A stretch of DNA of 63,260 nucleotides, filler included, from Reclinomonas americana ATCC 50394 (lineage: Eukaryota), in NCBI GenBank assembly GCA_048213135.1. It is 10 parts of 6 records of this genome, joined end to end, with 100 filler letters (N's around TTAATTAATTAA, not from the genome) between each part and the next. Parts side by side here need not be neighbours in the genome. Positions count along the whole stretch, not along the records: positions 28,004 to 52,729 come from PS015585.1; 9 more parts are not named here. One strand, written 5' to 3'. The notes below the pieces were generated by a model. That model had not been told where the DNA came from. It made no database searches and saw nothing but the letters and a program-made list of their open reading frames with translations. Both the position numbers and the translations under genes were made by a program. Each line of letters starts with the position of its first letter. The first letter of the stretch is position 1. Below, piece by piece: positions 15,404-62,190 of the stretch.

Positions 15404-16705
15404 TTGTGTGTGTCTTGGTTGTTGTTTCTCGCACACACGCGCGCGCTGCGTGATGCAAGAAACGAAGAGAGTGAGAGAACGAAGATTCGTTGATCCGAAC
15501 AGCAAGATGAAAAGGTGACAAGTCGTGATGGGAAGAGAGAAGGAGGAGTGGGAGAACGCGCAGAGAGGGTGGTGTCAGAGCACTGGGCAACCCTGGGCGC
15601 ATCGTCAACTGCGATTGTTCTCCATGACAAGCAATGCATGTCTCTTTGTTTCGATCTTTCTCTCATGGAGAGAACATGGATCAGGGGAAGGTGGTGCTGA
15701 GATGATGATGGACAACAGCTCCACGTCGAGTTACAACAGCGCACGTGGGCAGCTGCATCATGGCAGCATCACCTCGAGGAAGAGCCTCAGACAGACACAA
15801 TGAGAAGGTCACGATCTCGGCGATGCAGCTGAAAAACCACAACACTGATCGTCATCGAGACTGCATTCCAACCGCACCCGTTGAGATGGTGCCGATAAGA
15901 GGTGCAGGAGTATCCACAGACCCAACAAAGCAGCACTTCCTTGTGCTCGATCCACATCGAACCACCAAGAACACGAGTCATCTGCACAATCTCGTGATGG
16001 GTTACTCCCGTCCTCGCAGCTGTTGGTGGGCCATCATGCACCAACGATGTGCTGCTCTGCCGCAAACATGAACACAGAAGAAGCACGTGTCGTTGGTTAC
16101 CAATCTGGCTGGACTTGGTCAACAAGACAGCCATTCTCGTGTTTGTTGTTGATGAGAGTGAGCAACACGCACGAATACAAATGGATGCCCCGGGCGGCTG
16201 CACCCACAATACCATGATGGCCCCTTCCAACCATTTTTCATTCGTCTTGCTCCTCCACCTGCCACAACAACAACAACAGTCAGCTGCATGAAGACAAGAC
16301 TCAGATGCAGAGTCCATCCCGCACAACACAAGGCAACTTCTCAATTAAGCCCTCTTGGTGCACTGTGATTCTGCTTTTGTCTTCTTCTTTCCCGACAAGC
16401 TCCATCAATCTCACAAGCAACATGCATGTGTTGCCTGCCCAGTGAAACCTTTCTCCCTCTCTCACTCATCCGTCCGGCTGCCCCTCATTCCCACTCTCTC
16501 AGCACGCACCGATGCAGGTATGTCACAGTCCATCAACAGCAATGTCTTGCTCTCCACATCAAGCTCCTTCTCCATCACCACCACTCTGAATTTCTTGCTC
16601 TACATGTCCTCGTCCTCGTCTTCCTGTTCATCCTCCTCATCCTCGTCCTCCTCCTCCTCCTNNNNNNNNNNNNNNNNNNNNNNNNNNNNNNNNNNNNNNN
16701 NNNNN

Positions 16706-16717
16706 TTAATTAATTAA
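16706..16717. other. Artificial contig-concatenation linker TTAATTAATTAA (also at 18406, 20268, 27948, 52774, 56918, 59071, 60545, 62135)
   Basis: Identical 12-mer with stop codons in all six frames, each time embedded between N runs of ~44. Confidence 0.97.
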
Positions 16718-16764
16718 NNNNNNNNNNNNNNNNNNNNNNNNNNNNNNNNNNNNNNNNNNNNAAC

Positions 16765-17295: not shown

Positions 17296-18846
17296 AAGGG
17301 AGAGGAGTGGCAGGGGAAAGGAGGAGAGCGGAGTGGATCGTCAAACCAGACTGCCTTGGGTGCGGCTGGCAAACCATCGCAACGTCGAGCAAGTTGTCCC
17401 ACACCGATCACTCAATGGCCAGCACGCCTCACTCACACGTTCCCCGGCTCACTCGCTGGCACGACATCACCGATGCTGACGACGACGATNNNNNNNNNNN
17501 NNNNNNNNNNNNNNNNNNNNNNNNNNNNNNNNNNNNNNNNNNNNNNNNNNNNNNNNNNNNNNNNNNNNNNNNNNNNNNNNNNNNNNNNNNNNNNNNNNNN
17601 NNNNNNNNNNNNNNNNNNNNNNNNNNNNNNNNNNNNNNNNNNNNNNNNNNNNNNNNNNNNNNNNNNNNNNNNNNNNNNNNNNNNNNNNNNNNNNNNNNNN
17701 NNNNNNNNNNNNNNNNNNNNNNNNNNNNNNNNNNNNNNNNNNNNNNNNNNNNNNNNNNNNNNNNNNNNNNNNNNNNNNNNNNNNNNNNNNNNNNNNNNNN
17801 NNNNNNNNNNNNNNNNNNNNNNNNNNNNNNNNNNNNNNNNNNNNNNNNNNNNNNNNNNNNNNNNNNNNNNNNNNNNNCGCTCAAAGTGCGACAAGGCCGT
17901 TCGCAGGTGCGCCGACGGCCGTCCGACGTACGGCTCAAAGCCGTCGACTTGCTCGCCCTCGTCCAGTTCGTCGCCCCACTCCGACTCGTGCTCCACCAGG
18001 TCGGAGACCACCAGACGGACGTTTTGTCGAACGACTGCGGGTGGGAGAAAGAAGAGAGAAGAGGGAGATGCGTTATGCGTGTGAGAGCAGCGATCGCTAT
18101 GTCAATCGTTGTCACACGTGTGGGCGCGAAAATGCTTTGACAAACGCAACAGTCGACCAGCTCAACAACGCATCGACGGAGAACGGGTCCATGCGAAGCG
18201 TGTCGGCTTTGTAGTTGTGGTTGTGTAGTTGCAGTGGCGGTGGTGGAAGACGACGACGAGGAGAAGGAGGAGGAAGAAGCTGCGGTCTTTGAGATTGGAA
18301 GGCGCTCGGGTGGCGAGGAGAAGGAGTAGTCGTCGCCGTCTTCGTCGTCTGCATCGTCGTCNNNNNNNNNNNNNNNNNNNNNNNNNNNNNNNNNNNNNNN
18401 NNNNNTTAATTAATTAANNNNNNNNNNNNNNNNNNNNNNNNNNNNNNNNNNNNNNNNNNNNTCTTCTTCTTCTCTTCTTCTTCTTCTTCCTTCTCTCCTC
18501 CTCCTCCCCTCCCTCTCCTCCTCCTCCGTCCTCTTCCGTCTCCCTCCTCCCCCTCCTCCGCCTCCCCTCGCCTTCTCCTCCTTCCCCTCCTCCTCCTCCT
18601 CCGCCTCCTCCTCCGTATCCTCCTACTCCACCATCCTTCTCCTCCACTTTGTCCTCCTCTTTCTTCTTCTCCTCCTCCTCTTCTTCTGGCTCCCTCCTCC
18701 ACTTCCATCTTTCCCTTCGTTCTCTCTTTTCCTTCATTGTGCTGATGCCGAGATATTTGTTGAACGGCTGGCACTTGTTTGCACAGCTATTGCTAACCTT
18801 CCTCACTCTCTGTCTTCTGATTTCTCCCTTCACTTCTCTCTCCCAG

Positions 18847-20203: not shown

Positions 20204-20499
20204 GAGAACGAAGTAAGTAGTAGNNNNNNNNNNNNNNNNNNNNNNNNNNNNNNNNNNNNNNNNNNNNTTAATTAATTAANNNNNNNNNNNNNNNNNNNNN
20301 NNNNNNNNNNNNNNNNNNNNNNNTTTTGAGCGCGGGAAAAAATGAATGTGTCGATTGTCTAGAAATGGGTGGGGAGGTGAGAAGAGAGTGAGGAGATGGA
20401 GGTGGTGGAGAGAGGAGGTGCGAGAGGGAGAGACAAGAGCGGGAAGCAGGTCTTGGAGCTCACCGCCGCCGCTGGTGGAGTTGTCTACCTTCCCGCCAA

Positions 20500-26922: not shown

Positions 26923-28003
26923 NNNNNNNNNNNNNNNNNNNNNNNNNNNNNNNNNNNNNNNNNNNNNNNNNNNNNNNNNNNNNNNNNNNNNNNNNNNNNN
27001 NNNNNNNNNNNNNNNNNNNNNNNNNNNNNNNNNNNNNNNNNNNNNNNNNNNNNNNNNNNNNNNNNNNNNNNNNNNNNNNNNNNNNNNNNNNNNNNNNNNN
27101 NNNNNNNNNNNNNNNNNNNNNNNNNNNNNNNNNNNNNNNNNNNNNNNNNNNNNNNNNNNNNNNNNNNNNNNNNNNNNNNNNNNNNNNNNNNNNNNNNNNN
27201 NNNNNNNNNNNNNNNNNNNNNNNNNNNNNNNNNNNNNNNNNNNNNNNNNNNNNNNNNNNNNNNNNNNNNNNNNNNNNNNNNNNNNNNNNNNNNNNNNNNN
27301 NNNNNNNNNNNNNNNNNNNNNNNNNNNNNNNNNNNNNNNNNNNNNNNNNNNNNNNNNNNNNNNNNNNNNNNNNNNNNNNNNNNNNNNNNNNNNNNNNNNN
27401 NNNNNNNNNNNNNNNNNNNNNNNNNNNNNNNNNNNNNNNNNNNNNNNNNNNNNNNNNNNNNNNNNNNNNNNNNNNNNNNNNNNNNNNNNNNNNNNNNNNN
27501 NNNNNNNNNNNNNNNNNNNNNNNNNNNNNNNNNNNNNNNNNNNNNNNNNNNNNNNNNNNNNNNNNNNNNNNNNNNNNNNNNNNNNNNNNNNNNNNNNNNN
27601 NNNNNNNNNNNNNNNNNNNNNNNNNNNNNNNNNNNNNNNNNNNNCCAGCGGTCGCGACGCGCACGGAGACGATCGGGAATCGGGCGGATGGCGGTGTTGT
27701 GCATGATGTATAGAATACACTAGTTCAAATGTGTCTAATCGGCGGATTAGGTTTCCTATGTGACGGCTGTCGGCCGTCGCTGTGCTGTTGCGGCTATCAA
27801 GAGAGAAAATATGGCGCTGCTGCCGTGCGTCAACGCGTGTGACGGTCCTGTTTCATGCAGCCTGGAGCGTTGGGGTTCTTCGTGTAGCAGCATGACCACT
27901 GTGNNNNNNNNNNNNNNNNNNNNNNNNNNNNNNNNNNNNNNNNNNNNTTAATTAATTAANNNNNNNNNNNNNNNNNNNNNNNNNNNNNNNNNNNNNNNNN
28001 NNN

Positions 28004-30773
28004 AGCAGCGCAGCGTAGAGTTCTGTGCAGGTGCGGAGGACAGTGAGTGGGGTGTGGATGCAGTGCGAGAAGAGGAGAGTGCTCACCAGTAAGCGGTACA
28101 GGGAGAGTTGCATGATTTGCTGCGCGACATCTCACCTCCTGCAGCACAGTGTCAGCACGAGAAGCATGCATGAACGAGAGTATGGCGTCAACCATCGACG
28201 AACCCACTGTGCGTGTTTGACATTCGAGGATTCGTGAAGAGAGAGAGAGAAGATCAACTGGTGAGTGAGCGGTGGGTGATATGACACTGCGGTAGTAAAT
28301 GTCACACTGACCTCCTACGAACCGCAAGAGGCATGTGAGTCACACGCATAAGCAGATGGAAACGGGAACAGCACACATCAACTCACTTCCTGTTTTCCGT
28401 AATCCGCAGGCACGAGCAAAAGCAAGTCGGTAAAGGTGAGTTAACGCACACAGAAACCACTCAACACTAAGGGTATAACACACGCACATCCTGCAACAAA
28501 CAAATCAGAGTGAGACACAACAGACAGCGAACTACAACTACCCACAACATGTGCGACTCACATCCTGCAGCGAAGAGGGGGAGCAAGAGTGAGTGAATTC
28601 TTCTGAGAAGCATCCGACAAGAGGGACGTGATTACGCACAAACTGGAGGTGGAGTAGTTGTCGAAGCGCAAGCGATGAAACACAAGTGAGCAAACACAGT
28701 CGACAGCAAATCAACATGAATGAATGAGCATAAAAGCCGCAACGTCCTGCGCAGATCAGATAGGGTTAGTGACACGCTGCAAAGAAGGAAAAGGCTGACG
28801 GATCGTAGTGAATCAACGCACCAGCTGCAGAACAGGATGATGACGCGGGGAGAGAGAAGAGAACACAGGTCAGTTGCTGAAAGGCAATTGAAAGCAAATG
28901 TCACAAACTGCGGCTCACCAACTGCACATCAAAAGACAAGTGAATAATGAGTGAGCAAAGTGATAAATAGGAAGCATAGTGCGGCAAGGGTGCTCACTCA
29001 CATACTGATTTGTAGCCGGTCGAGAACAAGAGCAAGGCACAGTGAGTGAACTGCAAACAAAAAGGAGGCAATTGCGCGGCAACACGGGCACTCACATACT
29101 GCAGGTGATAAACGAGACATGGTTAGTTCACTCTGCTATGAATGTATGAAACAAGGCGAGTCACAGACAGCTCACCTCCTGTTCCACCAAGTTCGCACGG
29201 GCACGACGGACACACGCAAATGAGCAACACAGGAAAAGCATCAAGGCGCAGCAGCAGCAAGATCACAAAAGCACAAACCCCCTGCGATGCATGGACAACT
29301 TGGTCAGCAACCAGAATAAGACAGCTCAAACAACTGCCACACACTCACCGGATGGAACCGGCACTCGCTGCACTCCGGTGACGAGACGCACATGTTGCAC
29401 TTGTTGCACTTCCACAACTGTTCGTGTTGTCGCCTGTGAGAACGCGCAGGAGACGATCTCCCTCATGTGCAACACACAAACCTTGCTCTTGACAGACTGG
29501 ACGCGTTCAATGGCCAATCCAAACTCGTCAAACGTCGTCTCCATGACCATCTGGTTATCATGGTTCGGTTGTGAAGCCAGCGGTCGTCGTCTCCTGCGCT
29601 GGCCAGTGAGCTGCTCCTCGAGAGCTGCCACCTTTCCGCACAGTTCCTCTTTTTCTTGCTGATGATTCTCGACCATCTGCATTGCACATGTCAGTCTTTG
29701 CATGCAACTGGCTCTTGTGGGATGAGGGCAGGAGATGGAGAGGCAGACCTTGCGCCGCTCCACCTCGGTCTCCGACAACTGTTTTCGCAGGTTGGCCACC
29801 TGTGTGCAGATGGCATCGTGATTAGCATACTGTTGACGAACGTGTGTCATGCGTGGATAAGCTAGCTGACCTGCTGCTGCAGCAAGCGCACTGTCGGACC
29901 CAGCGCGGCATACTCGCACTTGTGTTTGGCCATGTCGCATGCTCGGCCGGTCCATTCGCATCCCACATCGCTCATGGCGCAGCAAACTTGACGCAGCGAG
30001 CACTCAAGCACTGGCGACAAGCAGAGTCAGTGGGTCGTCGGCATGCACTTGTCGGCCAACACTTACACACGCACCGTGATGCCTGTCCATGTCCCTGTAC
30101 GCAATGTGGTCGGCTCCACAGCGATCGCACACGTAGTTGCACTCAAGTCGGTGCGTCTCCATGTACTCGCGCACTGTACCTGTCCATCGGCACGGTGCCG
30201 CACCGGTCAACACATCGTTTCGCCGCGGGCATCGCACCTCCAGATTGTAAAACTGGCGCAAGTTCACCGACGGTGGCGTCACCGCATTCAGCAGTGTGGT
30301 GCCTCCGCAGCCGCAAAAGTTCAACGGACTGTGCGGAGTCAAGTGGCCTGCCAAAGCACCAAGTTTAGCGGCAGTCACACACGCACACACACGCAGCCAA
30401 GAGGCAATATTCGACGGCACACACAACTCTGGCAGGCGTAGTGCTCGCCGCGCAAGCACAGCAAGAAGGGAGCCTCGGCCAGGTCCTGGCACACACCGCA
30501 GCGGTAGAGCGACGACGAGGCCTCGTGCAGCAGGTCGTCTTCCGTCAGCGGAGGCGGAGGAGCACCGATGACAGTACTGAGCGTGCCGGTGGTAGCCGGT
30601 GGTGCTGAAGAAGAAGACGAGGAGGAGGAGGAGGAGGAGGAAGAAGAAGATGTGGAGGTAGTTGACGCCACTGATGGCCTCTTTTGTGGGTGGACGTGGT
30701 GGTGGTGGTGTGCGTGAGGCGACGCGTGCCGGTGGTGGCACACTGACGCGTTCGAAAGTACTCCGGTCAACAT
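28004..30773 (-). CDS. TRAF-like protein: RING, TRAF-type zinc fingers, coiled coil, then a CxxC...CxFHPG zinc-finger-like domain partly encoded by single-codon exons; 3' end truncated by the contig end
   Basis: YRCGVCQDLAEAPFLLCLRGEHYACQSC (RING), NLEVRCPR...CRWTGTVREYMETHRLEC and VCCAMSDVGCEWTGRACDMAKH (TRAF zinc fingers), QVANLRKQLSETEVERRK|MVENHQQEKEELCGKVAALEEQL (coiled coil), exon 29349-29417 LWKCNKCNMCVSSPECSECRFHP, 14 microexons, then NSTLRC at 28004-28022. Start codon (30773) uncertain. Confidence 0.8.
28136..29281 (-). other. Array of 14 consecutive 3-nt phase-0 microexons (one codon each)
   Basis: Minus-strand YAG|NNN|GT units: 29279-81 GGG, 29176-78 GAG, 29096-98 TAT, 29002-04 TAT, 28919-21 TTG, 28822-24 CTG, 28744-46 GAC, 28640-42 TTT, 28562-64 GAT, 28488-90 GAT, 28387-89 GAA, 28312-14 GAG, 28204-06 TGG, 28136-38 GAG. 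Intervening introns are 65-105 nt with this genome's typical donors and CTSAC-like branch sites. Confidence 0.88.
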
Positions 30774-30962
30774 ACTGCGCGATAAAATGCAATACACACG
30801 GGTCAGCGCAGCAGCAGAGCGAGGTGTCGACGGAGTGCCTCTGACGCAACGCGCACACGCGATCGGGCAAGAGTGAAAAACGACAGAATGCGATCTCTCG
30901 CCGATTGGGGCAATGATGAGCAACGGTCGACAGGACGAACATCGATTGTCCCGACATCGCGA

Positions 30963-33870
30963 ATGCTGTCACTTCTCGTGCGCCGGCGCTGTTTCGCCTC
31001 TGCGCCTCCGCCTCTGGCCAGCTTGTGTGTTGCGTTGTTGGCGACCAGAGAAAGAGAGACGCAAAAAGAAAAGGCGACTGATGAAGTGTGCACTGCAGAC
31101 GTCGAGTGGCTTGCATTTCCTGGAGGTCGCTGGCACCAGTCCGCGCGCCACGGAGCACCCTCCGCTGCTCGTGCTGCACGGTCTCCTCGGGAATGCACAG
31201 AACTGGTGCGTCCGCACAGGCGACTATGATGCATCATTGTGTCAGCTGCTGATCGCTTGTGTGTGTGTGCTTGCAGGAGTACGGTGATTGCCCGCTCGTG
31301 TGTGTCAACGGAGGGTGAAACTGACGGAAACTGACTGTTGTTCTCGTTCTGCGTGTGAGGTGGTGCGACGATACGATGTGGCGGCCGGTCGTAGAGCGCT
31401 TCTGATCGATCTGGTGAGTCGTGCACGCACTGATGCAGTTGCGTGTGTTGGCTGACTGCGAGCGGGCGAGCGACAGCGCAACCACGGCAAGAGTCTGCGA
31501 GCAGAGACCATGTCGTACGTAGAAATGGCACAAGACATTCTGTTGCGTGTCGGTGTGGGTGGGGAAGACACGATTGCGAGGCTCATCGTGATCGTGCAGA
31601 ACTTTCATGGACGAGCGTGGCTTGCCGGAGGCCGCCATTCTTGGTCACTCGTTGCGTTTGCATGTTGCATTTGTGTGCTCTGCGTGGAGCTGACCGACGG
31701 GCGCAGCATGGGAGGCAAGGTGGCGATGCAAGTGGCGCTGGAGGCACCCGAACGGGTCAGTCGCTGTCGCAGATTGAGAACGAGGGGGTGGGAAGCTGTC
31801 GTGGTGTGGTGACAGTTGCTGTTGTTGTTGTTGTGCAGGTGTCTCGCTTGATTGTGGGTGATATTGCGCCGATGAACTACACGGCGCACGCCTCGTGGAC
31901 GATCCCGCGGATCATTTCGGCCATGGAGCACATGGATCTGCGTCGCATACGCAACAGAGCGCAGGCGGAGGAGTACCTCGTGCGTGCACACATTACGGTG
32001 CGTTGGTGGGGCAGCGAGGAGCAGACGAGGCGGTGGGATCGATTGTAACGTGTGTGTCACCACTGGCCAGGACGCCCGCGTGAGGCAGTTTATCATCACC
32101 AACCTGGTGAGTGTCGACAGCGCTGTGGACCCCGCTCAGCCGGCGTACGAGTGGCGCGTGAATCTGCCGGTGGTTGCGTTGGAAGGAGGGGAAGGGAATG
32201 GGAAAGGGAGATGCGAAGGGATAAGGGGGAAGGGAGAAGGGAGAGGGAAAGGCGGGGAAAGAGAACGAGAGAGTGAGGGCGAGTGTTGAGGAGGAGTACA
32301 GGAAATCGGAAAGGAGGGAAGAGGAACGAGAGAGAGAGAGAAAGAGGGCGAGTGTAAGAGAAGGGAGAGGACGGCATGTGAGAAGGAGAGAAGAGAAAAT
32401 GGAAGAGAAAATGGAAACGAGAGAGGGGGAGTGTAAGAGGAAGGCATGTGAGAGATGAGGAAAAGGAAATGAAAGAGTGACTGAGAGAAGGCGAGTGTAA
32501 GAGAAGGAGAAGGCACGCACGATGAGATGAGAAAGGAGGGAAGAGGAAACGAGACAGAGAGCGCGAATGTACAAGGAGAAGACGGCATGTGAAAAGAAAA
32601 GGGGAGGGAGGAAACGGGGAGGGNNNNNNNNNNNNNNNNNNNNNNNNNNNNNNNNNNNNNNNNNNNNNNNNNNNNNNNNNNNNNNNNNNNNNNNNNNNNN
32701 NNNNNNNNNNNNNNNNNNNNNNNNNNNNNNNNNNNNNNNNNNNNNNNNNNNNNNNNNNNNNNNNNNNNNNNNNNNNNNNNNNNNNNNNNNNNNNNNNNNN
32801 NNNNNNNNNNNNNNNNNNNNNNNNNNNNNNNNNNNNNNNNNNNNNNNNNNNNNNNNNNNNNNNNNNNNNNNNNNNNNNNNNNNNNNNNNNNNNNNNNNNN
32901 NNNNNNNNNNNNNNNNNNNNNNNNNNNNNNNNNNNNNNNNNNNNNNNNNNNNNNNNNNNNNNNNNNNNNNNNNNNNNNNNNNNNNNNNNNNNNNNNNNNN
33001 NNNNNNNNNNNNNNNNNNNNNNNNNNNNNNNNNNNNNNNNNNNNNNNNNNNNNNNNNNNNNNNNNNNNNNNNNNNNNNNNNNNNNNNNNNNNNNNNNNNN
33101 NNNNNNNNNNNNNNNNNNNNNNNNNNNNNNNNNNNNNNNNNNNNNNNNNNNNNNNNNNNNNNNNNNNNNNNNNNNNNNNNNNNNNNNNNNNNNNNNNNNN
33201 NNNNNNNNNNNNNNNNNNNNNNNNNNNNNNNNNNNNNNNNNNNNNNNNNNNNNNNNNNNNNNNNNNNNNNNNNNNNNNNNNNNNNNNNNNNNNNNNNNNN
33301 NNNNNNNNNNNNNNNNNNNNNNNNNNNNNNNNNNNNNNNNNNNNNNNNNNNNNNNNNNNNNNNNNNNNNNNNNNNNNNNNNNNNNNNNNNNNNNNNNNNN
33401 NNNNNNNNNNNNNNNNAGGAAGAATGAGATACGCTGCAGAACGAGATCATTGCTGTCCTCGCCATGTGAGAATCACACTCCGTCGTGCAGATCGTCAGGC
33501 AGCTGGGAGAGATTGGCGACTTTCCCGACACCCAAGGTACGATCCGCATCGCCGCCGCCACGTCTCTCGTCACCGTGCCACTCACTGCACGTCGCCGCAC
33601 TTGCAGCCGTCTACACCGAGCCCGCGTTGTTCATTGGCGGCGATCGCAGCATCCACATGAAGGGCGAGAGTGCCGAGCGCTCAATCCACAAGTACTTTTC
33701 GCGGCCACTGGTGCGTCGGCACACACCCGTGTCTCGATCAATCGAGCGCATGACTCACCTACAGCCTGTAGATCGAATTCATCCCCGACACGGGCCACTG
33801 GGTGCACTCCGAGTCGCCCCTCGAATTCTCCCAGGTCGTACGCAAATTCCTGACGCCACTGCAGGAGTAG
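30963..33870 (+). CDS. Alpha/beta hydrolase, ABHD11/YbfF-like
   Basis: Spliced motifs PPLLVLHGLLGNAQNW, LIDL|RNHGKS, MSYVEMAQDI, ILGHS|MGGKVAM (nucleophile elbow), LIVGDIAP, WRVNLP, ALFIGGDRS, TGHWVHSESP...TPLQE*; Arg-rich N-terminus (MLSLLVRRRCFAS) resembles a mitochondrial presequence. Confidence 0.9.
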
Positions 33871-50849: not shown

Positions 50850-52729
50850 TTAACTTAAGTGCAACCGATAAATTCCTGTATCTGCAACAGCGACGATTTT
50901 GGTGCCGTCGCTGTTGCAGATCACCGACAACCAAGTGCGACTGATATCGCGAGCAGTCCACGTCGCGCCAGAATCAGTGGAGACGTATATCGGAAACACG
51001 CCCCCAACAGCCACCAGAGTGGTTCCGTCACTACTGGAGGCTACTGATCGCCACTGACGGCTGGATTCGTGTTGCGTCCAATTCACACCCGAGTCAACAG
51101 AGATGAAAATCCGAACACCAGAAGCCACAGCTACCAGCTTCGTACCGTCACTGCTGGAAGCCACACCCCACCAGCTACGAATGCTCTCACGACTCGTCCA
51201 CGTGCCGCCAGAGTTAGCGGATGTGAGGAGCTGCGAAATATTCGGCGCGGCCGCCAACTTGGTACCGTCACTGTTGGAGGCTACTGCACGATACTGGCGA
51301 GATGGGCCCGCAACCCAGGTCTCACCAGAGTCAGCAGAGACGTAAATCGCACCGTTGGTCAAGGCAGCCACCAGCTTCGTACCGTCGCTGTTGGAGGCCA
51401 CAGCAACCCATGCGCGACTGGACTCGCGAGCCGTCCACGTCAAGCCAGAGTCCGCTGAGGTGTAAATCAGGCCGTTATTCACCACAGCCACTAGCTTGGT
51501 GCCGTCACTGCTGGAGGCTACAGATTTCCAGTCGCGGTGGGAATCACGAGGCGTCCACATCGCGCCAAAGTCAGTAGAGATGTAAAGCTGAGTACTCCTT
51601 CCAGCAGCCAACAGCTTGGAACCGTCACCGCTGGAAGCCACTGAAAGCCATACAACAGTACTATTTGCACGCAAGCCAGCGGTCGACGCTGACCACGTTG
51701 CACCAGCGTCGGTAGAGGTGTAAACCTGACCAGGGCTAACCGCGGCCACAAGTATGGTGCCGTCACTGGAGGAAGCCACGGAAGCCCAGGCGCGAGCGGT
51801 CTCCTGAGCCGTCCACGTCGCGCCCGAGTCAGTGGAGGTGTAGATCTGCCCTACATTCGCCACAGCAACCAGCTTGGTGCCGTCATCACTGGAGGCCACT
51901 CCACTCCACTGGCGACTGGAATCGCGAGCCGTCCACGACACACCAGAGTCAGCAGAGGTGTAGATATTGCCATTATTCGCTACAGCCACCAGATTGACAC
52001 CGTCACTGCTGGAGGCTACAGATTTCCAGTCGCGAGCTGAATCACGAGCCGTCCACGTCAAGCCAGAGTCCATGGAGGTGTACATGGAACCATTGCTCAC
52101 CACAGCCACCAGGTTGGTGCCGTCACTGCTGGAGGCCACCGAAGTCCAGGCGCGATTAGAATCATGCGCGGTCCAAGTGACGCCAGAGTCGGCAGAGGTG
52201 TAGATCTTGTCGCTAGTCGCAGCGGCCACCAGCTTGGTGCCGTCACTGCTGGAGGCCACTGCGCTCCAGCTGCGATTGGCATCCGTAGCTCGAGCAATCC
52301 ACGTTACGCCAGAGTCAGCAGAGGTGTAAATCCGGCCATTTTGCACAGCAGCCACCAGCTTGGTGCCGTCACTGCTAGAGGCCACTGCGAACCAGTTGCG
52401 ATTGGAATCGCGAGCCGTCCACATCGCACCCGAGTCAGTGGAGGTGTAAATCCTCCCGCCGAGTTCCGCAACCACGAGCATGGTGCCGTCACTGTTTGAG
52501 GCCACAGAGTGCCATGTGCCAACAAATGTAAGTGTTGGAACAGCACTGAGGGTTGAGCACGTGGAACCTGCCCGCGACAAGGTGAATCGGTCAACACTTA
52601 CACACACCAACACACACCAAAACTAAAAAAGACCAACAGATATGAGAGGCCAGCTACTCACCACTCCATGAGAATGCACAGCTGCAAGAGCCATCAGTGG
52701 CGCATGTTCCGTGTCCAGAGCACGTAGTG
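50850..52729 (-). CDS. EGF-like domain followed by 14 BNR/Asp-box repeats (likely two 7-bladed beta-propellers); 5' truncated
   Basis: Exon 52662-52729 TTCSGHGTCATDGSCSCAFSWS joins in phase 1 to exon 50850-52567 (G|STCS...), which has 14 copies of WxxVASSSDGTKLVAxxxxGxIYTSxDSGxTW. Confidence 0.9.
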
Positions 52730-52829
52730 NNNNNNNNNNNNNNNNNNNNNNNNNNNNNNNNNNNNNNNNNNNNTTAATTAATTAANNNNNNNNNNNNNNN
52801 NNNNNNNNNNNNNNNNNNNNNNNNNNNNN

Positions 52830-54191
52830 GTGTGGCGAATGCAGAGCGCACGGATGTGACGGAGGAGCAGATTGCAGAGGCGGTGGATGGACTCGATGTG
52901 TTGCAGTTGCCTGGTGAGTCTCGTCACTTTTTTGTGTGTGATGTCACACCTTGTGACTGACGATTGGATTATTCCGACGACTTCGCAGCCGGCTTGACAC
53001 TGACGGTGCGCAATTCGCGTCTCTTGTGCGCCGCCTTGCGAGACAACACGACGATCCACACGTGCGATCTGTCGTCGGCGCTGCTGGGCACGAGCTGCAT
53101 GATGCGATTGGCGAGTACGTTGGCGGAGAACAATTCGATTGTGAGTCTCTCGCTGGCACACAATCCGGTGGGATCGTTGGGCGCGGGCTTTTTGGCGGAG
53201 GCTCTCGTTGCGTGCCATTTACTGCGTGCCGAAGGGGAGGGGAGAGAAACCAGCTGCTGACCGTCTTCTCTTGCGCAGTCATTGAATACGACGCTGACGA
53301 CCCTCGATTTGCGCGACTCGTGCGTCGGTGTGGTGGGCGTGCAGGCACTGGCCAACGCCATGTCGCTGAATCGCACACTGCTGACGCTGCATCTGGACGA
53401 GAACCACATTGGCGACGATGGCGTGCAGGCGCTGGCCGATGTGTTGGCGTCCACGACTAGCGCGGTGCAGTCGCTCAGTCTGTCGTCGTGCTCGGTGTCG
53501 GACACGGGCGCCTCGGCACTGGCCGCCACCTTGCACACGAACCGCTCGCTTCTCCTGCTCGACCTCAGCCNNNNNNNNNNNNNNNNNNNNNNNNNNNNNN
53601 NNNNNNNNNNNNNNNNNNNNNNNNNNNNNNNNNNNNNNNNNNNNNNNNNNNNNNNNNNNNNNNNNNNNNNNNNNNNNNNNNNNNNNNNNNNNNNNNNNNN
53701 NNNNNNNNNNNNNNNNNNNNNNNNNNNNNNNNNNNNNNNNNNNNNNNNNNNNNNNNNNNNNNNNNNNNNNNNNNNNNNNNNNNNNNNNNNNNNNNNNNNN
53801 NNNNNNNNNNNNNNNNNNNNNNNNNNNNNNNNNNNGCAACCACGTGACGGACGCCGGCGCCGCGGAGCTCATTGACGCGCTGCGCACGAACCAGACGCTG
53901 GCCACCCTCAATCTGCTGGAGAACACGGCCATTGACAACGACAACGTGATGCAGTTTGCGTCGAATGCCCCTCCGTCGGTCGCCGGTCGCAGCATGATTG
54001 ACGAGGACTCGATCATGCGCGACGACGAGGACGGCAGTGTGGTGTTTTTGGTCGATCGCATGAATCCGTACGAGGCCGTCGGTCGTGCCATCATGGCCGA
54101 CATTGTGCACCCGCGGAGACCAGTGAGCGCGGCGGGCGAGCGATTTATCGGTGCGCAGAGTGCGGCGATGGATTTGTCGGATGTGGGCTAA
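52830..54191 (+). CDS. RNI-like leucine-rich-repeat protein (NLRC3/LRR_6-type repeats), 5' truncated
   Basis: 28-aa repeats such as NTTLTTLDLRDSCVGVVGVQALANAMSL, NRTLLTLHLDENHIGDDGVQALADVL and NQTLATLNLLEN; stop at 54189-54191. Confidence 0.88.
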
Positions 54192-62090: not shown

Positions 62091-62190
62091 NNNNNNNNNN
62101 NNNNNNNNNNNNNNNNNNNNNNNNNNNNNNNNNNTTAATTAATTAANNNNNNNNNNNNNNNNNNNNNNNNNNNNNNNNNNNNNNNNNNNN

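Follow-up and report, generated by a model that had tools for sequence, protein, structure and literature searches.

We examined a stretch of 63,260 nucleotides from the genome of Reclinomonas americana ATCC 50394 (GenBank assembly GCA_048213135.1), referred to here as the window, and focused on one gene on its minus strand. The gene begins with an ATG at 30773 and is truncated at 28004 by the end of its contig, which covers 28004-32623. It has six conventional exons, which can plausibly, although weakly, be read as part of an E3 ubiquitin ligase, followed by an array of 14 sites at which an acceptor-like YAG and a donor-like GT are separated by exactly three nucleotides (YAG-NNN-GT). The sites lie 65-113 nt apart on the minus strand, and all are in phase 0 and free of stop codons. 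A first-pass annotation of this DNA had described them as 14 single-codon exons, in phase 0 and stop-free, and all the details of that description that can be checked in the sequence were correct. Read in order, the 14 codons spell G, E, Y, Y, L, L, D, F, D, D, E, E, W and E, and they lead into an exon that starts NSTLRC. The first 19 nt of that exon (28004-28022; N-S-T-L-R-C...) are present before the contig ends at a linker (27904-28003; N44-TTAATTAATTAA-N44), and the 3' end of the gene lies outside the window.

The six conventional exons were modeled at 30773-30425, 30347-30075, 30010-29871, 29799-29749, 29676-29482 and 29417-29349, all on the minus strand. The five introns between them are 77, 64, 71, 72 and 64 nt long, with donors GTGTGT, GTGCGT, GTCAGC, GTCTGC and GTTTGT, respectively. 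Exon 1 encodes a low-complexity N-terminus rich in His and Ser and the first part of a RING-like CxxC...C..H..CxxC motif, and ends in phase 1. Exon 2 carries the remainder of that motif and the first half of a zinc finger of the TRAF/Sina type, the second half of which is in exon 3. Exon 4 holds the beginning of a charged, Leu-rich, presumably helical stretch; exon 5 continues it and then encodes a basic and polar linker. Exon 6 is 69 nt long (23 codons; peptide P0003), is in phase 0 at both ends, and encodes a Cys-rich knuckle of the form W-x-C-x2-C-x2-C-x5-C-x2-C with CRFHP at its C-terminal end, just before a strong donor (CCG/GTGAGT). The intron between exons 5 and 6 runs from AAG/GTTTGT at 29481 to gaacag at 29418 and includes a CTCAC 19 nt upstream of its acceptor. 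The reading frame of exon 5 stays open and continues through this intron into a frame with a GC content at third codon positions (GC3) of 0.46. We accepted the Cys-rich frame for exon 6 because its GC3 is 0.91. The full model, including the array, is an open frame of 379 codons with a GC3 of 0.72.

The first two microexons of the array are GGG for Gly (29279-29281, cag/GGG/gtttgt) and GAG for Glu (29176-29178, cag/GAG/gtgagc). They are followed by two TAT codons for Tyr, microexon 3 at 29096-29098 and microexon 4 at 29002-29004, and by two Leu codons, TTG for microexon 5 (28919-28921) and CTG for microexon 6 (28822-28824). Microexon 7 is GAC for Asp (28744-28746) and has a weak donor, GTTGCG. 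Microexon 8 is TTT for Phe (28640-28642), microexons 9 and 10 are both GAT for Asp (28562-28564 and 28488-28490), and microexon 11 is GAA for Glu (28387-28389). Microexon 12, GAG for Glu (28312-28314), is flanked by the acceptor TAG and the donor GTCAGT. The array closes with TGG for Trp (microexon 13, 28204-28206, donor GTTCGT) and GAG for Glu (microexon 14, 28136-28138). The intron between microexons 6 and 7 also contains a very good acceptor, with a long pyrimidine tract and gcag, at 28760-28777 (minus strand), 30 nt before the modeled acceptor. Splicing to this site would bring in 30 more nt, among them a TGA in frame; the site may represent an alternative but unproductive 3' splice site, or else the trace of an earlier unit boundary.

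The sequences around the 14 codons have the features of splice sites throughout. YAG lies directly 5' of the codon in all 14 cases (CAG in 13, TAG in one), and GT lies directly 3' in all 14. The donors are of the form GTGAG in seven cases, GTGCG in three, and other forms in the remaining four. The 15 introns defined in this way are 65-113 nt long (mean 85.6), compared with 64-77 nt for the five upstream introns; four reach 100 nt, the last being the longest at 113 nt, and all are GT...AG. Each of the 15 has a candidate branch point of the form CTNAY 9-59 nt before its acceptor, and in general they resemble the upstream introns of the gene. Across the array the gene strand is 34% T and 16% A. 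Three of the 15 introns have no AG besides the acceptor, and in the other 12 the nearest upstream AG is 15-69 nt away.

The clustering of these sites is far above chance, is specific to the minus strand, and is specific to the exact 3-nt spacing. The pattern YAG-NNN-GT[AGT][ACT]G has 41 matches on both strands of the whole 63-kb window, and 12 of the 25 on the minus strand fall inside the 1.15 kb from 28136 to 29281. With the looser pattern YAG-NNN-GT, the minus strand of 28023-29348 (1326 nt) has 16 sites, compared with 2.85 expected and a maximum of 10 in 5000 first-order Markov simulations of the same composition, the expectation being their mean. Outside this interval, the window has a background of 1.3-1.5 such sites per kb, and 3 are present on the plus strand of the interval itself. 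When the spacing was varied from 1 to 20 nt, a spacing of 3 placed 10 of 25 minus-strand matches in the region, and every other spacing placed 0-3 there. Two additional sites, at 28907 and 28776, would imply introns of only 11 and 27 nt and were therefore left out of the exon count. At the level of the DNA, the array of 14 single-codon exons is thus confirmed.

Two of the units are recognizably related to each other. We refer to a codon together with its downstream intron as a unit, so that unit 3 is microexon 3 with the intron 29095-29005 and unit 4 is microexon 4 with the intron 29001-28922. When the 15 array introns were locally aligned all against all after trimming of the splice consensus, those of units 3 and 4 had the highest score of the 105 pairs (19; mean 9.3, standard deviation 2.35), and none of 3000 dinucleotide shuffles reached that value. 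In the alignment of the two complete units (A1), the codon and the adjoining GTGAGTG are identical in 10 of 10 columns, as are a branch-like heptamer, TCACTCA, and the final CAG, and about one-third of the remaining columns are identical. The comparison indicates that units 3 and 4 are a tandem duplicate of a codon-plus-intron unit in which the splice signals have been preferentially kept since. No similarity was found in the other 13 adjacent intron pairs. The codons nevertheless resemble each other in register: GGG and GAG (units 1 and 2), TAT and TAT (3 and 4), TTG and CTG (5 and 6), GAT and GAT (9 and 10), and GAA and GAG (11 and 12). The summed codon differences come to 8 (permutation P = 0.02), and identical residues stand side by side four times (P = 0.047).

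Taken together, the alignable pair and the in-register likeness of the codons make tandem duplication of a codon-plus-intron unit the probable origin of the array, and it probably grew by repeated duplication of single units. Tandem Repeats Finder reported 0 arrays on 28004-29400. A repeat search found one clear element, the splice-signal motif of 14-15 nt; the other families were short, had 2-3 copies and were of the size expected by chance. Given these two results, the array is not a recent satellite. The motif has seven copies of 78% identity or more between 28130 and 29399, reading ACKCAC-NNN-CTGCA on the plus strand, which is the reverse complement of acceptor, codon and donor. Six of the seven copies coincide with microexon sites, and the seventh, at 29386-29399 within exon 6, is a chance or relic match. 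A probable route of growth would be unequal exchange between the shared splice-signal motifs of neighboring units. Each such event would add or remove exactly one residue, and the frame and the splice sites would be kept. The older duplication events would no longer be visible in the intron bodies.

The composition of the encoded segment differs from that of the rest of the protein. Among the 14 residues there are seven Asp or Glu, four Tyr, Phe or Trp, two Leu and one Gly, and no basic residue. All 14 thus belong to seven residue types (D, E, Y, F, W, L and G) that account for 28% of the protein outside the array. Five codons begin with T and five end with T, so that the array includes residues beyond those that the splice consensus alone would give.

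The upstream part of the gene model is backed by homology. A protein of 195 residues, P0005, aligns to residues 118-263 of the model with 32% identity over 149 residues (pairwise E value 1e-24), and the alignment passes the junctions between exons 2 and 3 and between exons 3 and 4 without gaps there. P0005 comes from a single contig of 1120 nt, in which the equivalents of exons 2-4 are in one open frame; the two introns that split these exons are therefore absent from that organism or transcript. It was one of six matches, at E values up to 0.001, in an exhaustive search with exon 2 against 1.84 billion representative proteins. We read five of the six sequences and regard P0005 and P0008 as true relatives, P0005 being the only clear one. 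The other three were rejected as relatives: P0006 and P0009 appear to be C2H2 zinc-finger repeats, and P0007 is a protein made of repeats. Both P0005 and P0008 are singletons in a cluster look-up, and no equivalent of exon 6 or of the array was found in either. A search by shared words among proteins of 162-2000 amino acids, again with exon 2, gave no match, and a sequence search of the PDB with exon 2 gave C2H2-finger noise only (best E value 0.012). A metagenome locus, L001, the one of 597 pattern matches to pass tblastn with exon 2, was a false lead, a bacterial protein that has a short NAVTPPSV stretch in common with the exon. We found no paralogue; tblastn of the model across the window matched the gene itself only.

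The first-pass annotation had assigned a RING domain and TRAF zinc fingers to the protein. This reading is plausible, and the cysteine pattern visible in the N-terminal part, CxxC...C..H..CxxC...CxC, is of this kind, but every Pfam match is under its curated cut-off. Searched as single exons, that is, as pieces split by introns, exon 1 matches Sina_RING with 15.1 bits (E value 0.027; cut-off 29.3), exon 2 matches TRAF2_zf with 14.6 (E value 0.026; cut-off 27), and exon 3 matches zf-TRAF with 15.3 (E value 0.034; cut-off 27) and Sina_ZnF with 14.4 (E value 0.051; cut-off 32). The unbroken P0005 matches zf-TRAF with 24.4 bits (E value 4.7e-5) and Sina_ZnF with 23.2 bits, against the same cut-offs. 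RING/TRAF-like or Sina-like E3 ligase is accordingly a plausible but weakly grounded label for the upstream exons, and a coiled coil in exons 4 and 5 is suggested by amino acid composition only. By inspection, without the use of a predictor, the His-, Ser- and Pro-rich N-terminus has no hydrophobic stretch of the kind found in a signal peptide.

Two claims about where the encoded segment sits are not supported. It had been placed between zinc ligands in CRFHP and LRC. Exon 6 alone, however, holds a CxxC...CxxC set, and since it already has two CxxC pairs, the array stretch need not sit inside a zinc site. No Pfam family matched exon 6 at E values up to 10, whether the search was done with P0003 or with the 52-residue frame around it. 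Zinc fingers of the RanBP2/NZF type have the pattern W-x-C-x2-4-C-x3-N-x6-C-x2-C. We considered this type for exon 6 and rejected it, because there is no family match and the spacing between the Cys pairs is 8 rather than 10. The segment had also been said to occupy the position at which TRAFs carry their MATH domain. With the gene cut 19 nt into the next exon, and the contig ending right after the array, a replacement of MATH cannot be claimed; the sequence upstream of the contig end has no match to a MATH domain.

In all 14 units the AG, the GT, the 3-nt spacing and a sense codon have been kept, even though the introns have diverged. Because the splice signals were kept in every unit while the intron bodies diverged, use of every site is suggested, and the pattern fits purifying selection against failure at any single site. 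Together with the unit duplication, the kept signals lean towards routine use of every site, and some skipping would still be compatible with them. We put at about an even chance the reading that the array is spliced with all 14 codons included constitutively, in a gene that resembles those for RING/TRAF-type zinc-finger proteins.

Several observations weigh against this reading. Splicing of the array is deduced throughout from the DNA sequence. Eight of the 14 codons start with G and seven end with G, as the splice-site consensus favors; part of the excess of Asp and Glu follows from a G after the acceptor and an A-G before the donor, which weakens the argument from composition. There are four weak donors (GTTTGT, GTTGCG, GTCAGT and GTTCGT) and some poor pyrimidine tracts, so skipping is possible. 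Phase 0 depends on the acceptor that was chosen for exon 6 (gaacag at 29418). Two of the 15 array introns have a length divisible by three and no stop codon, so the frame would not always catch their retention; as a sign of selection against retention, which would appear as avoidance of such introns, this number is uninformative. Read-through from exon 6 into the first array intron meets a stop after 15 codons (open reading frame 29304-29462), and the gene could end there, with a shorter protein that lacks the array. Finally, duplication as the origin of the whole array is an extrapolation, with intron homology in one of the 14 adjacent unit pairs.

If the array is spliced constitutively, it would most likely work as follows. 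The small size and narrow size range of the introns in this gene point to intron definition, and introns of about 65-115 nt would be removed by that route. A 3-nt exon would then be the junction of two independently defined introns and would not be recognized as an exon. It would lie wholly under the footprints of the complexes at the upstream acceptor and the downstream donor. Neighboring introns could hardly be committed simultaneously, and sequential removal of the 15 introns is therefore expected. As in recursive splicing, each ligation would restore the exonic part of the donor that follows, but one codon would stay in the transcript per step. The normal product would contain all 14 codons, as an acidic and aromatic stretch after the small Cys-rich knuckle.

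A different possibility is that the array lies outside the mature coding sequence, either because the gene ends soon after exon 6 or because a single intron spans all 1.33 kb. In that case the AG-NNN-GT units would be the decaying remains of duplications, or pseudo or decoy sites with no coding role. Three-nucleotide exons are hard for spliceosomes, and two features of the sequence fit such a reading, namely the stop 15 codons after CRFHP and the fact that a direct splice from 29348 to 28023 would also be in frame. Exon 6 matches no family, and the library search, with its six weak matches, shows no relative that has the C-terminal part; P0005 has no equivalent of it. In a neutral relic, however, the AG, the GT or the 3-nt spacing should be missing from some units, and none of the 14 units has lost any of these or gained a stop, which is also difficult to square with excision of the entire interval by one splice. 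The splice signals of units 3 and 4 are conserved above the rest of the unit. There is also no AATAAA on the minus strand of 28004-29348, a weak point because the polyadenylation signal of this organism may differ. We consider a non-coding array unlikely. The repeated motif could also be a mirror image of splice signals on the other strand, since CTGCAG reads the same on both strands and the branch-like CTCAC becomes GTGAG in reverse complement. The sites would then be branch points with acceptors (CTCAC-NNN-CTGCAG) of antisense introns, and the plus strand of 28004-29350 does have six GTRAGT donors and six YYNCAG acceptors, four of the latter at CTGCAG microexon sites. But an AG is present on the plus strand at only 4 of the 14 sites, that strand is 34% A and 16% T, and the loose pattern is found there 3 times as against 16 on the minus strand. 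Open frames on the plus strand are short, with a GC3 of 0.46-0.67 (0.72 for the minus-strand model) and no clear codon-position bias. The array, in contrast, runs on in phase and on the same strand from a gene supported by homology, and an antisense origin of the motif is very improbable. A role of the region as a host gene for small nucleolar RNAs was also rejected, because Rfam gave a single sub-threshold match on 28004-30900, outside the array (21.2 bits, cut-off 50).

The first-pass annotation had proposed that the array diversifies the protein through skipping of microexons. Because all the microexons are 3 nt long, in phase 0 and stop-free, any subset can be skipped in frame. The number of inclusion patterns that had been given, 2^14 = 16,384, is correct as arithmetic, and so is the expectation of fewer distinct peptides, of which we computed 3586, including the empty one. 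If single one-codon exons were often skipped, in a regulated or a stochastic way, the cell would have isoforms of an E3 ligase that differ by single residues within an acidic, aromatic segment. Skipped transcripts would evade surveillance based on the reading frame in all 16,384 patterns, several splice sites are weak, and by our own arithmetic an error of 2% per exon over 14 exons would leave about a quarter of transcripts short of a residue. There are precedents in other systems. In the part of the source available, schistosome micro-exon genes are described as varying by alternative splicing of central symmetric exons (10.1101/2023.06.21.545858), and in an excerpt of another, three consecutive microexons of RPS24 (3, 18 and 22 bp) are reported to be alternatively spliced (PMC12207440).

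The case for frequent skipping is countered by several points. The isoforms are a proposal from sequence. The weak sites of the array are no weaker than those of the upstream introns, the removal of which is required by the P0005 alignment. In systems of short introns recognized by intron definition, the usual error is retention of an intron, not skipping of an exon. That 14 pairs of sites were kept after the introns diverged argues for selection against the loss of any of them. In addition, the product looks intracellular, with no signal peptide by inspection, whereas the proteins known to be diversified in this way are secreted and exposed to a host. We therefore think it doubtful that skipping is frequent.

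A broader form of this idea, which we offer tentatively and think improbable, is that the array acts as a codon accordion that varies the protein one residue at a time, at the levels of both DNA and RNA. At the DNA level, unequal exchange would add or delete codon-plus-intron units, and strains would differ in the number of residues. At the RNA level, as many as 3586 versions of a short linear motif, acidic and aromatic in character, would arise by in-frame skipping of single one-codon exons. The residues L, L, D, F and D, encoded by microexons 5-9, are compatible with a clathrin-box-like consensus, L-hydrophobic-x-hydrophobic-[DE]. If this idea is right, the docking motif of a ubiquitin ligase would be tuned or switched by splicing, through the smallest-grained exon array known.

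Among the closest known systems are the micro-exon genes (MEGs) of Schistosoma mansoni. There, as in the present array, at least ten very short exons with lengths divisible by three follow one another between conventional exons, and any of the central ones can be dropped in frame. As far as the available part of the source covers them, MEG exons are mostly 6-81 bp, most commonly 15 bp, and are separated by introns of 0.1-5 kb; the products carry signal peptides and are secreted, and only schistosomes have the family (10.1101/2023.06.21.545858). In contrast, the 14 exons here are exactly 3 nt long, the introns are 65-113 nt, and the protein is RING/zinc-finger-like and has no evident signal peptide. 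The likeness is one of architecture and not of family membership, and we claim no relation in sequence.

Ultra-short exons are also known in isolation. The available portions of three reports describe 3-nt exons in mammalian MAP4K5 and RPS24 and 1-nt exons in plant APC11 and VPS55 (PMC8831610, PMC8632122, PMC12207440). According to the same portions, exons as small as 1-3 nt can be spliced in between two introns, and they may be conserved and constitutively included. They occur singly, or in runs of no more than three exons that differ in size, whereas the array has 14 of 3 nt. Our full-text literature searches turned up no run of microexons longer than three apart from those of the MEGs, and no run of 3-nt exons at all. 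The ratchet points of long Drosophila introns, as described in the part of the source available, have an acceptor that adjoins a donor, such that a 5' splice site is rebuilt and the intron is removed stepwise (PMC8605326). In ratchet points the AG and the GT are juxtaposed, nothing is left in the mRNA, and the introns are very long. The array differs in that all 14 of its sites have the AG and the GT 3 nt apart, its steps are shorter than 115 nt and, if it is spliced as modeled, each step would add one codon. In the Rogers model, introns are reportedly gained by tandem duplication of a segment containing AG/GT, which creates a new intron without disturbing the frame. The pair of TAT units resembles an event of this type, except that the duplicated segment would be an existing intron plus one codon. 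We have seen no description of a serial array formed by repeated duplication of intron and codon.

The 3-nt exons known so far stand alone or, at most, belong to a set of three consecutive microexons, and the known arrays, those of the MEGs, have larger exons and long introns. A run of 14 consecutive single-codon exons would, if true, be the most extreme miniaturization of exons described. Such a run would test a limit of the spliceosome, because an acceptor and a donor would be placed 3 nt apart 14 times, with consequences for sterics, for the order of intron removal, and for the choice between intron and exon definition. It would also bear on the multiplication of introns through tandem duplication of a codon and an intron, and on residue-by-residue variation by splicing outside the secreted proteins of parasites. 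In practical terms, standard gene finders and aligners of RNA sequencing reads would not model this gene correctly.

The window joins short draft contigs; genes are often truncated, and neighbors across a linker may not be neighbors in the genome. The linker N44-TTAATTAATTAA-N44 occurs at 11 places (for example, at 16662-16761, 18362-18461, 20224-20323, 52730-52829 and 62091-62190), and with numerous further N runs the window contains 7292 N in total. On the contig of the array gene, the divergent neighbor on the plus strand (31081-32140) reads like an alpha/beta-hydrolase of the ABHD11 type, with HG..G...NW, a DLRNHGKS-like stretch and a GHS.GG-like nucleophile elbow. In a three-frame translation it appears to have many exons of roughly 20-120 nt; Pfam gave no match on three open reading frame pieces that overlap this gene (30877-31284, 31456-31809 and 31876-32286, plus strand). 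It is followed by about 480 nt of purine-rich, low-complexity sequence (GGGAAG-like and GAGAGA-like; 32140-32620, plus strand) directly before an assembly gap.

Other genes in the window give some context for gene structure in this genome. A gene for a Rab5-like small GTPase (35640-36137 and 37326-37985, plus strand; Pfam Ras, E value 1.3e-14 with one exon) is broken by 978 N of assembly gap. At about 175 nt, its first intron shows that introns in this genome can exceed those of the array in length. A lipin gene on the minus strand (42967-46372) has matches to Lipin_N and three consecutive pieces of LNS2 (E values 1e-19 to 1e-22) and exons of about 60 codons. The lipin junctions have no missing residues, and microexons are thus not general to every gene here. 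The window also contains a fragment of a PAS-domain protein (40758-41417, minus strand), an open frame of 590 codons with BNR/Asp-box repeats (50853-52622, minus strand), and leucine-rich repeats (LRR_6) at 53261-53569 on the plus strand.

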